DNA of 64,000 bases from Deltaproteobacteria bacterium (GTDB lineage Bacteria; Myxococcota_A; Polyangia; Haliangiales; JADYYK01), in the NCBI GenBank assembly GCA_020853705.1, contig JADYYK010000245.1, forward strand, positions 7,943-71,942, written 5' to 3'. Below are positions 33,976 to 35,539 of this stretch, one piece after another (position 1 is the first letter of the stretch; each line of letters begins with the position of its first letter). Under the pieces are notes generated by a model that was given only the letters and a program-made list of their open reading frames with translations, did not search any database and was not told where the DNA came from. The position numbers and the translations under genes were made by a program.

Positions 33976-34512
33976 CTAAGGGGTGTGCGCGCCTTTCAAG
34001 GATGTCACGGTCAGCCCAGGCACGTCATCCTGCCGGAAGAGCGCGCGGTTGGTGACGAGCACCCTTGGATTCAGCCAGCGCAACTCCCTGCCGATCTCCT
34101 CCTTGAGGGCAAGCGCGTATCCCGGGGCGGCGTCTTCGAGCCAGAGGAGGACCGTGCGCTCCTTGCTTCGTGCGCCAAAGAGGACGCGGATGAGATGGGG
34201 GATCCCGGCGGAGGAGACTCTCCCATGTACCCAGGTCAGGGCTGCGATGGTGTCCCTTACCTTGGTCGACACGACCTCGGGAAGACGCGCCCTCGTGCTC
34301 CTGAACGAAATTCGCGCACCGCGCGGATCTTTGACCTCGATGAGCCACACGCTAGACCCGTTCAGGACTCCCAAGATGTCGACGGCTCTCGTGCCCTCGG
34401 CCGCCCTGTGCAGTCCTTCAAGATACGCTGGGTCTGCGTCCCACTTGAGGGCTGTCCAGGAGTTGTCGAAAGAGAACTCCAGTCGACCTTCGACGCCGAT
34501 GCTACCGCCCAC
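33976..34512 (-). CDS. small partner protein of the upstream ATPase, possibly Toprim-like (DUF4276/RloB/OLD-C-terminal type) or a PD-(D/E)xK nuclease-fold protein; hypothetical
   Basis: A GTG start 6 nt after the ATPase stop (VGGSIGVEGRLEFSF...) gives 178 aa. The N-terminal hhhVEG motif with a conserved Glu resembles the start of Toprim domains of OLD-family partners. A D...E-V-K arrangement (AVDILGV...VWLIEVKD) and the acidic motif LLWLED are also present. Local GC is lower than the flanks. Confidence 0.5.
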   Translation of the reverse strand: MGGSIGVEGRLEFSFDNSWTALKWDADPAYLEGLHRAAEGTRAVDILGVLNGSSVWLIEVKDPRGARISFRSTRARLPEVVSTKVRDTIAALTWVHGRVSSAGIPHLIRVLFGARSKERTVLLWLEDAAPGYALALKEEIGRELRWLNPRVLVTNRALFRQDDVPGLTVTSLKGAHTP

Positions 34513-34516
34513 GCTG

Positions 34517-35539
34517 CTAGCTCGCCTTGTCGAGTTCGGCCTCGAACTCATACTGACGTGCAAACTGCTCAGAGATCGGGTTGGCCGCGAGTTCCTCCAG
34601 CGTCCCTCCCTGTTCGACCTTGACCGGGTCCTTCCGTTGGGGTCTGAAGAAGCCAAAGAACTGAGTCGCAGGCCACCCCTTCTTCGCAGTGCTCGCTGAC
34701 AAGCGCCTCGCGAGGAGGAAGTCGTGGGTGGTGACGAATACCTGCACGCCTTGCTTCGCCAGGAGGCCGAGCAAGTCGGCCACAACGACGGTCAGTCGCG
34801 GATTCAGGTTCGCTTCAGGCTCGTCCCAGAACAGGAAGCCGTTCGTCGTCAGCATTCCGTTGAGAACGAGGCGCTCGAGGCTTGCGATCTTCCTCAATCC
34901 CTCCGCCACCAGGTGCGCCTCCATCAGGGCCCTGTCGCCGGAGAACTTCACATAGAAGCGGTCGCCATGGAGCTCTGAGTGGCCGCCCAATGCCTCGCGC
35001 AGGGTCGAGACGATCTCATCGGCGGCTTGCTTGCGAACCCCTCGCGCGGGATTGGCGTTCAGAGCCACGCAGGCGTCATAGTAGGTTTCGTCGAAGGACA
35101 ACTCGCGCTCGGTATATGCGTGGATGAAGCCCTCATAGAGGGCCAGGATCTCGCGGCTGGGCAGAAAGACAGATCGTTCGCCTTCAGCCCACCCGTGGAA
35201 CTTCGGCCCCCCAAGCTTGCTCTTGTGCAGGGTGAACTCTTGCCGGCCGCCACCTATATCAGAGGTCAGCTTCACGATCGCAGTCGCGAGACCTTGTCGC
35301 CGCCTGACCAAGCGGCCAACTTGGCCTCCATCTGGCCGAAAGACCCCAGCCAACTTCGCCGCGAGCACTCGAGCGTCGCCACCCTTGCGCGCGCTCTCGA
35401 GCATCGCGTAGATGAGCTTGAGGACGTGGGTCTTGCCCGTCCCATTCTCACCAATGAAGACGTTGATGCCCGAGGTGAATGTCAACTTCGCCTCCTCGAA
35501 GGCACTGAACTCGCGGACCTGGATGCTGTTTACGGCCAC
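34517..35539 (-). CDS. ABC/SMC-type AAA ATPase (AAA_15/AAA_21-like, OLD/PARIS/Septu-like ATPase fold)
   Basis: 340 aa. The N-terminus VNSIQVREFSAFEEAKLTFTSGINVFIGENGTGKTHVLKLIY is the RecF/SMC-like arrangement with Walker A GENGTGKT. Walker B with D-loop is FLFWDEPEANLNP. The H-loop is FVTTHDFLL. Local GC is clearly below the roughly 72% of the flanks. Confidence 0.7.
   Translation of the reverse strand: MAVNSIQVREFSAFEEAKLTFTSGINVFIGENGTGKTHVLKLIYAMLESARKGGDARVLAAKLAGVFRPDGGQVGRLVRRRQGLATAIVKLTSDIGGGRQEFTLHKSKLGGPKFHGWAEGERSVFLPSREILALYEGFIHAYTERELSFDETYYDACVALNANPARGVRKQAADEIVSTLREALGGHSELHGDRFYVKFSGDRALMEAHLVAEGLRKIASLERLVLNGMLTTNGFLFWDEPEANLNPRLTVVVADLLGLLAKQGVQVFVTTHDFLLARRLSASTAKKGWPATQFFGFFRPQRKDPVKVEQGGTLEELAANPISEQFARQYEFEAELDKAS

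Follow-up and report, generated by a model that had tools for sequence, protein, structure and literature searches.

A local drop in GC content within a stretch of 64,000 nucleotides (nt) from a Deltaproteobacteria bacterium of the Myxococcota_A lineage (assembly GCA_020853705.1, contig JADYYK010000245.1 of 88.8 kb, positions 7,943 to 71,942; hereafter the window) raises the question of what the two genes located there encode and how they came to be there. In the source record these genes carry only the labels 'AAA family ATPase' and 'hypothetical protein'. An original prediction, made from the letters of the sequence, had read them as a horizontally acquired two-gene defence module in which a small nuclease accompanies an ATPase of the ABC/SMC type, and had considered the pair a compact or uncharacterised variant of known systems. 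The analysis presented here supports the module as such and gives it a family: with a probability of roughly 85%, window positions 33882-35623 represent a horizontally acquired 1.7-kb cassette that encodes a two-gene anti-phage defence system of the HEC-02 type. The inserted segment comprises 1,742 nt, as delimited by blastn comparison with a related contig, alignment of the junctions, and GC statistics, and encodes nothing beyond the two genes, both of which are located on the minus strand: the ATPase gene (34517..35539; 340 amino acids, GTG start), whose product is an HEC-02A-type ABC protein similar to Rad50, SMC, and PtuA, and the partner gene (33976..34512; 178 amino acids, GTG start at 34512), whose product is an HEC-02B-type protein of the PD-(D/E)xK nuclease class. 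The two genes, the motifs, and the sequence strings that had been quoted for them were all found at the locus.

HEC-02 stands for Hma-embedded candidate 02, the prototype of which was described in Dickeya dianthicola NCPPB 3534 and consists of an ABC ATPase and a 'NERD-like' PD-(D/E)xK protein embedded in Hma systems (Payne et al., bioRxiv 10.1101/2024.01.29.577857). When the Dickeya pair was introduced into E. coli, the plaquing of at least two phages fell by orders of magnitude, an effect that required the presence of both genes (bioRxiv 10.1101/2024.01.29.577857). In our searches, both proteins of the window matched HEC-02 models of PADLOC. The ATPase matches the HEC-02A model PDLC04213 with an E value of 1.2e-87, residues 1-334 being aligned with profile positions 1-330 of 337, and two further HEC-02 models, PDLC04146 and PDLC04214, with E values of 2.4e-76 and 6.1e-56, respectively. 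For the partner, matches to four HEC-02 models of the small subunit were obtained, with PDLC04145 ranking first (7.8e-14), followed by PDLC04228 (7.4e-10, profile positions 5-189 of 199) and two weaker ones. The protein sequences tested in Dickeya, which are given in supplementary table 2 of Payne et al., were also compared directly with those of the window. The ATPase is 37% identical to Dickeya HEC-02A over 327 amino acids (E 8e-64). For the partner, BLASTP revealed 32% identity to Dickeya HEC-02B over the N-terminal 85 amino acids (E 2e-11), and hhalign aligned the two proteins over their full length (161 columns) with a probability of 99.3% and an E value of 1.2e-20. The heptapeptide WLIEVKD is identical in both. 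Judged by these sequence relationships, the cassette is a divergent, stand-alone member of a described family and not a new system, so that the expectation of an uncharacterised variant was superseded by the 2024 preprint. Our literature search yielded no work on HEC-02 itself besides this preprint and no later mechanistic work; other publications mention Hma-embedded candidates in surveys.

The pair had also been compared with systems of the OLD, PARIS, and Gabija type, and the N-terminal sequence IGVEGRLEF of the partner with the start of Toprim domains in DUF4276, DUF4435, or RloB proteins. A compact OLD, PARIS, Gabija, or DUF4276-type system with a Toprim partner would account for the E values of 1e-19 to 1e-9 obtained for the ATPase with the AriA, GajA, PtuA, and Old models of PADLOC, AriA being the next system after HEC-02 (1.6e-19), and for the glutamate residue in VEGRLEF. 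However, these matches are patchy and confined to residues 1-50 around the P-loop and residues 170-290 around Walker B, whereas the matches to the HEC-02 models extend over the entire protein, with E values lower by about 70 orders of magnitude. The partner does not match any Toprim-type family in Pfam, NCBIfam, or PADLOC, no Toprim protein is found among the fold matches of its structural model, and the glutamate residue, E8, is variable in the family. The Toprim assignment of the partner was discarded on these grounds, and a system of this kind, being refuted at the level of both fold and profile, is the least probable of the alternatives and can practically be dismissed.

The ATPase belongs to the ABC/SMC type, as had been proposed, and all motifs expected for this class were located. 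The Walker A motif or P-loop GENGTGKT (residues 30-37; 35429..35452, minus strand) contains G30, N32, G35, and K36, which are invariant in an alignment of 31 homologues. The same alignment shows invariance of L210, E213, G214, R216, and K217 in the sequence LVAEGLRK (residues 210-217; 34889..34912, minus strand), which from its position ahead of Walker B is the probable ABC signature motif. It is followed by a stretch that includes Walker B, the catalytic glutamate, and the D-loop (FLFWDEPEANLNP, residues 235-247; 34799..34837, minus strand; F237 through N246 invariant) and by the H-loop FVTTHD (residues 268-273; 34721..34738, minus strand; F268, H272, and D273 invariant). Like GENGTGKT, the sequences FWDEPEANLN and TTHD are unchanged in the 31 homologues, and the predicted nucleotide-binding and hydrolysis motifs of the ATPase are all intact. 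Pfam assigned the protein to generic families only (AAA_15, 6e-17; AAA_21, 2.6e-14), and searches of NCBIfam and PHROGs with the two proteins added nothing specific. In a sequence search of the PDB, ABC transporters were the only matches of the ATPase (E about 6e-4), and no solved HEC-02 homologue was found. The AF2 model of the ATPase has a pLDDT of 91.5, and the nearest solved folds are those of Septu PtuA (8eea, E 5e-15, TM ~0.57), the retron-associated PtuA-like ATPases, Rad50, and SMC heads.

Longer homologues of the ATPase were encountered in metagenomes (P0080, P0086, P0103, P0111, and P0123; 560-568 amino acids, 47-51% identity), which possess an extra N-terminal region of about 215 amino acids. 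This region showed no Pfam match and no similarity to the nuclease partner, and these proteins may represent a variant to which a sensor or effector domain has been fused. Two of them, P0086 and P0111 (about 560 amino acids), had been considered as fusions of ATPase and partner, a possibility that was rejected since the additional 215 residues are N-terminal and unlike the partner.

For the partner, the suggestion of a D...E-V-K arrangement reminiscent of PD-(D/E)xK nucleases, based on the sequence VWLIEVKD, gained support both from structure prediction and from conservation, and the motifs quoted for this protein were both located. The AlphaFold model, calculated with an alignment of 20 sequences, has a pLDDT of 90.6 and a pTM of 0.88, and its fold matches are PD-(D/E)xK nucleases; the partner shows a nuclease fold and no affiliation with a non-nuclease family. 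A Foldseek comparison of the model with the PDB gave no significant match, and a search of the PDB sequences with the partner profile gave nothing below an E value of 0.7. Conservation was assessed in a set of 64 sequences, consisting of 62 proteins from other genomes together with those of the window and of Dickeya. Asp45 is present in 63 of the 64 sequences, Glu59 in all of them, Lys61 in 61, and Lys84 again in all; D25, R86, D87, and E126 are likewise highly conserved. The codon of the predicted catalytic Asp45, which lies within the sequence AVD, is located at 34378..34380 (minus strand), and the codons of the predicted catalytic residues E59-V60-K61, the ExK of WLIEVKD, at 34330..34338 (minus strand). 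In the model, D45 opens the core strand beta-2 (residues 46-50) and E59-x-K61 closes the next one, which is the canonical geometry of a PD-(D/E)xK site. The partner is accordingly predicted to be a small PD-(D/E)xK ('NERD-like') nuclease with the catalytic residues D45...E59-x-K61. The Pfam family DUF6661 (PF20366) did not match the partner of the window; two of its homologues with 36-40% identity (P0010 and P0015) reached 33-34 bits at a cut-off of 27, and a third (P0002) an E value of 0.028. A literature search revealed nothing that mentions DUF6661.

The arrangement of the two genes is compact. The stop codon TAG of the ATPase gene (34519-34517) is separated from the GTG of the partner gene by the four nucleotides CAGC, so that the spacing is 4 nt and not 6 nt as previously given. 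A Shine-Dalgarno-like run, AAGGCGAG, is located about 10 nt 5' of the partner start, and translation of the partner is probably coupled to that of the ATPase gene. The chosen start codon is supported by the fact that the PADLOC matches begin at residue 7 of the 178-residue reading. Since the cassette lies on the same strand as the M16 peptidase genes and downstream of them, its expression may start in the 84-nt spacer upstream of it or result from read-through from these genes. A terminator scan detected a single terminator-like site, which is located within the partner gene, a scan of positions 33000-36500 against Rfam gave no match, and the fold of the 3' spacer was no better than that of shuffled sequences (z = -0.84).

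The same features bear on the view that the cassette is a decaying, non-functional remnant of a transferred element. Its solitary position, the failure to recognise a promoter, and the presence of degraded partners at some homologous loci would fit such a view, but both reading frames of the window are full length compared with the family profiles, the ATPase motifs and the D, E, and K residues of the nuclease are intact, and the 4-nt spacing and the Shine-Dalgarno-like run are preserved, which makes decay at this locus very improbable. Elsewhere in the family, the catalytic lysine is lost in some partner homologues (among P0007, P0008, and P0009), in which EGGS or EGNS replaces EVKD, and locus L014 has EVTD; the match to the partner is partial in L014, L020, and L026. 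Because of these lysine losses and partial matches, putatively inactivated or decaying copies of the cassette can be said to occur in nature.

Two observations indicate the horizontal acquisition of the cassette, namely its composition and the presence of an empty site in a close relative. The GC content of the islet formed by the two genes is 62.1% compared with a mean of 71.6% for the window, so that among all sliding windows of 1,564 nt it belongs to the lowest 0.3%, with z = -3.1 in relation to non-overlapping ones. At third codon positions, the GC content is 0.782 for the ATPase gene and 0.770 for the partner gene, whereas the other called open reading frames (ORFs) have a mean of 0.925 (standard deviation 0.048) and the two adjoining plus-strand genes on the left side values of 0.97 and 0.95. 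The lower GC content noticed initially is therefore confirmed as a real drop, which is unusual for the window, lies outside its normal range, and is not a chance fluctuation.

The empty site was found in a contig designated L085, which was recovered when metagenomes were searched with the MVP protein encoded next to the cassette. The MVP protein of L085 is 98% identical to that of the window, the adjacent 191-residue protein 93%, and the M16 peptidases 89-96%. According to blastn, positions 3072-6865 of L085 correspond to window positions 30089-33881 at 95% identity and positions 6892-9478 to window positions 35624-38219 at 91.5%. The inserted segment fits exactly between two stop codons, one of the 191-codon plus-strand gene, which ends at 33881, and one of the convergent M16 peptidase gene (35627); these convergent stop codons are 26 nt apart in L085 and separated by the 1,742 nt of segment 33882-35623 in the window. 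Taken together with the atypical codon usage, the empty site points to a recent insertion in the lineage of the window, in agreement with the horizontal origin that had been postulated. Whether inserted here or deleted in L085, the cassette is accessory and not part of the core genome.

These properties are difficult to reconcile with a housekeeping pair for DNA repair or recombination, in which a miniature Rad50/RecF-like ATPase and a nuclease would act together as in SbcCD or RecN-type systems. This explanation can refer to the weak matches of the ATPase N-terminus to the SMC_N, RecF, and Rad50 profiles, to the occurrence of Rad50 and SMC heads among the nearest solved folds, and to the nuclease fold of the partner. 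The matches to repair families are, however, far under the NCBIfam cut-offs (34 bits compared with 172 in the case of RecF), the pair is missing at the same site in a relative with about 95% identity, its codon usage is atypical, it occurs only sporadically, in phyla far apart from each other, and has a lower GC content than its flanks in every case, and phage defence was demonstrated for the homologous pair of Dickeya. We regard a repair function as highly unlikely.

The distribution of the pair was studied by a scan for ATPase homologues using one genome per species, which gave hits in at least 597 species, the best 80 loci of which were compared. These 80 loci span Myxococcota, Planctomycetota, Verrucomicrobiota, Chloroflexota, Bacteroidota, Proteobacteria, Actinobacteria, Cyanobacteria, and others, and in 73 of them the ATPase gene is directly followed by a gene for a partner homologue in the same orientation. 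Among the seven loci that seem to deviate, at least two (L068 and L075) contain divergent small ORFs bearing a D...ExK motif, and others represent contig ends. The surroundings of the homologues P0020 and P0006 consisted of a contig end and an unannotated gap, with an ATPase fragment upstream at locus L004. In all 53 other genome loci with enough flanking sequence, the pair is GC-poorer than its flanks, the mean difference being 7.4 points. The surroundings of the pair are not conserved, and no core-genome synteny was seen; neither an MVP gene nor a gene for the 191-residue protein was found near the HEC-02 pair in any of the 80 loci, and M16 peptidase genes are present within 5 kb in two of them (L040 and L072), which was judged coincidental. 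In a plasmid collection, the partner gave one weak match (Pseudanabaena, E 4e-4), and in a phage collection none. As a separate observation, the ATPase homologue of locus L018, from a metagenome-assembled genome (MAG) of the Chloroflexota, is followed by an ORF of 416 codons (4736-5986), of which the first 15 or so residues resemble the partner N-terminus (EIEHQRFEFS) and the rest looked like a type I restriction specificity subunit; it could represent a truncated partner that is linked to a restriction-modification system or lies within one.

The foreign-looking composition in every host examined could also be explained by a selfish cassette, either of an addiction or toxin-antitoxin-like type, in which the ATPase restrains a toxic nuclease, or of a homing type, in which case post-segregational killing or self-propagation would be the primary function and defence a side effect. 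In Pfam, the family AAA_21 bears the description 'putative AbiEii toxin, type IV TA system', and the cassette consists of two bare genes that lie precisely between two stop codons and are not accompanied by mobility genes. On the other hand, such a nature would be compatible with defence, as many abortive-infection systems are toxin-antitoxin-like, and defence was directly shown for a homologue. The partner is, moreover, nearly absent from plasmids and absent from phage records, and the junctions show neither target-site duplications nor terminal repeats, the only similarities being matches of 6-11 nt at chance level. Two candidates for insertion signatures were rejected for this reason: the sequence TCGTCCTGGTC, 11 nt long and directly repeated at positions 33909 and 35689, and GGTCAG, which is found near both junctions. 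We consider a primarily selfish cassette unlikely and give about the same small weight to a more speculative proposal, namely that HEC-02 spreads as naked two-gene units without a recombinase and that the pair drives its own homing-like insertion, being a selfish element and a defence system at once, with the separate suggestion that the PD-(D/E)xK effector targets tRNA and not DNA.

Several points weigh against the assignment of the cassette to an acquired HEC-02 defence system. The identity to the validated pair is just 37% for the ATPase and 32% for the N-terminal 85 residues of the partner, and the validation comes from Dickeya and none from myxobacteria. A search of Pfam with the partner gave no family at E ≤ 1, including the NERD model (PF08378); the label 'NERD-like' denotes a fold class only and derives from the general PD-(D/E)xK fold and from the work of Payne et al. 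(bioRxiv 10.1101/2024.01.29.577857), in which HEC-02B was superposed on a NERD model. A promoter scan detected no promoter-like site, the sigma-70 consensus used being ill-suited to this GC-rich organism. No outgroup serves to distinguish insertion in the window from deletion in L085, since in less closely related genomes the synteny ends beyond the gene for the 191-residue protein. There is also no support from a defence island: the ten neighbouring proteins gave no PADLOC match at E ≤ 1e-3, no integrase or transposase is encoded among the neighbouring genes, and the flanks, which consist of the MVP homologue, the 191-residue protein, and M16 peptidases, contain neither an Hma system nor further defence genes, and no tRNA gene. 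Finally, the authors of HEC-02 stated that it is unknown how these ATPases sense infection (bioRxiv 10.1101/2024.01.29.577857), and complex formation, trigger, and substrate are derived entirely by analogy with other systems.

By this analogy, with Septu PtuAB, PARIS AriAB, and retron PtuAB as models, the ATPase would oligomerise, bind the nuclease, and serve as infection sensor or as regulator. Release or activation of the nuclease might then be triggered by a cue from the phage or by an altered nucleotide state, and the nuclease would cut nucleic acid and stop the replication of the phage, perhaps at the expense of the cell. The most simple assumption for its substrate would be DNA, but tRNA or other RNA is also possible; Septu is reported to cleave tRNA-Tyr (PMC13096335, PMC12673091).

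The neighbouring genes on the left side had been pointed out as lying directly beside the cassette. The MVP homologue (30720-33281, plus strand, 853 amino acids) was identified correctly, as it matches the Pfam families MVP_shoulder (3.9e-27) and Vault_3 (4e-9). The gene located 25 nt behind it (33306-33881, plus strand, 191 amino acids) had been assigned to the 2H family, for which two HxT motifs (HFTV and HVTL) would be fitting; a Pfam match, as well as a PADLOC match, is lacking. In at least eight metagenomic relatives (among L085-L092 and L106), whose MVP proteins are 71-98% identical, a homologue of the 191-residue protein is encoded directly downstream of MVP, and because of this joint occurrence the two genes look like a conserved pair in their own right. 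A functional tie to the cassette was excluded, as L085 carries both genes without it and none of the 80 HEC-02 loci contains them nearby; the adjacency is incidental. The collinearity with L085 ends to the left of the MVP gene at window position 30089, and a 264-nt piece at 29497-29756 corresponds to L085 227-489 in inverted orientation with 75% identity, which suggests a second rearrangement or a variable segment just left of the MVP gene. Just upstream of the latter, an ORF of 161 codons (30113-30598, minus strand) encodes a protein with a cysteine-rich C-terminal stretch and weak Pfam matches to Pacifastin-inhibitor and VWF-like domains, which are below the gathering score. The sole tRNA gene of the window, tRNA-Cys (GCA; 25592-25665, minus strand), is 8 kb away from the cassette and not associated with it.

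The analysis reveals no new kind of system, but a putative function is now assigned to two genes that had been annotated in general terms, and the range of HEC-02 is extended from an enterobacterial validated example to high-GC Myxococcota and, if the related loci are included, to at least nine phyla. The window and L085 form a clean pair of filled and empty site, in which a minimal 1.7-kb defence cassette was gained or lost between near-identical genomes and mobility machinery is not visible, and this pair should be useful for studying the movement of small defence systems.

Compared with known systems, the partner shares the restriction-endonuclease-like fold and the D...ExK site with NERD (PF08378), Hachiman HamA, Shedu SduA, the nuclease domains of Can2/Card1, and the FokI cleavage domain. 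PARIS, composed of AriA and the Toprim protein AriB, is similar in the logic of a sensor ATPase and a nuclease effector and provides, with AriA, the best PADLOC match outside HEC-02; it differs in that this match is patchy and that the partner described here is not of the Toprim/DUF4435 type. Septu, composed of the ABC ATPase PtuA and the HNH protein PtuB, offers the nearest solved ATPase structure and is likewise a two-gene operon for an ATPase and a small nuclease effector, and its retron-associated versions (Ec78/Eco7) contain PtuA-like ATPases to which the fold of the ATPase is also near. Septu is likely to be a suitable working analogy, in which an ATPase oligomer would hold and regulate the nuclease. 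The effector is, however, a PD-(D/E)xK protein instead of an HNH protein, the identity of the ATPase to PtuA is 13-16%, and the PtuA profiles of PADLOC and NCBIfam reach residues 1-50 only (31.6 bits compared with a cut-off of 500). The closest counterpart is the HEC-02 prototype itself, from which the cassette differs in its host, a high-GC Myxococcota MAG and not an enterobacterium like Dickeya, in a gap of 4 nt in place of an overlap of 4 nt, and in its location alone between housekeeping genes, whereas the context of discovery of HEC-02, which is not a strict requirement, was inside Hma or other defence systems. Both have the same two protein families, encoded by abutting genes on one strand in the order ATPase then partner, all ABC motifs are present, and the sizes of the proteins are 340 and 178 amino acids here and 342 and 169 amino acids in Dickeya.

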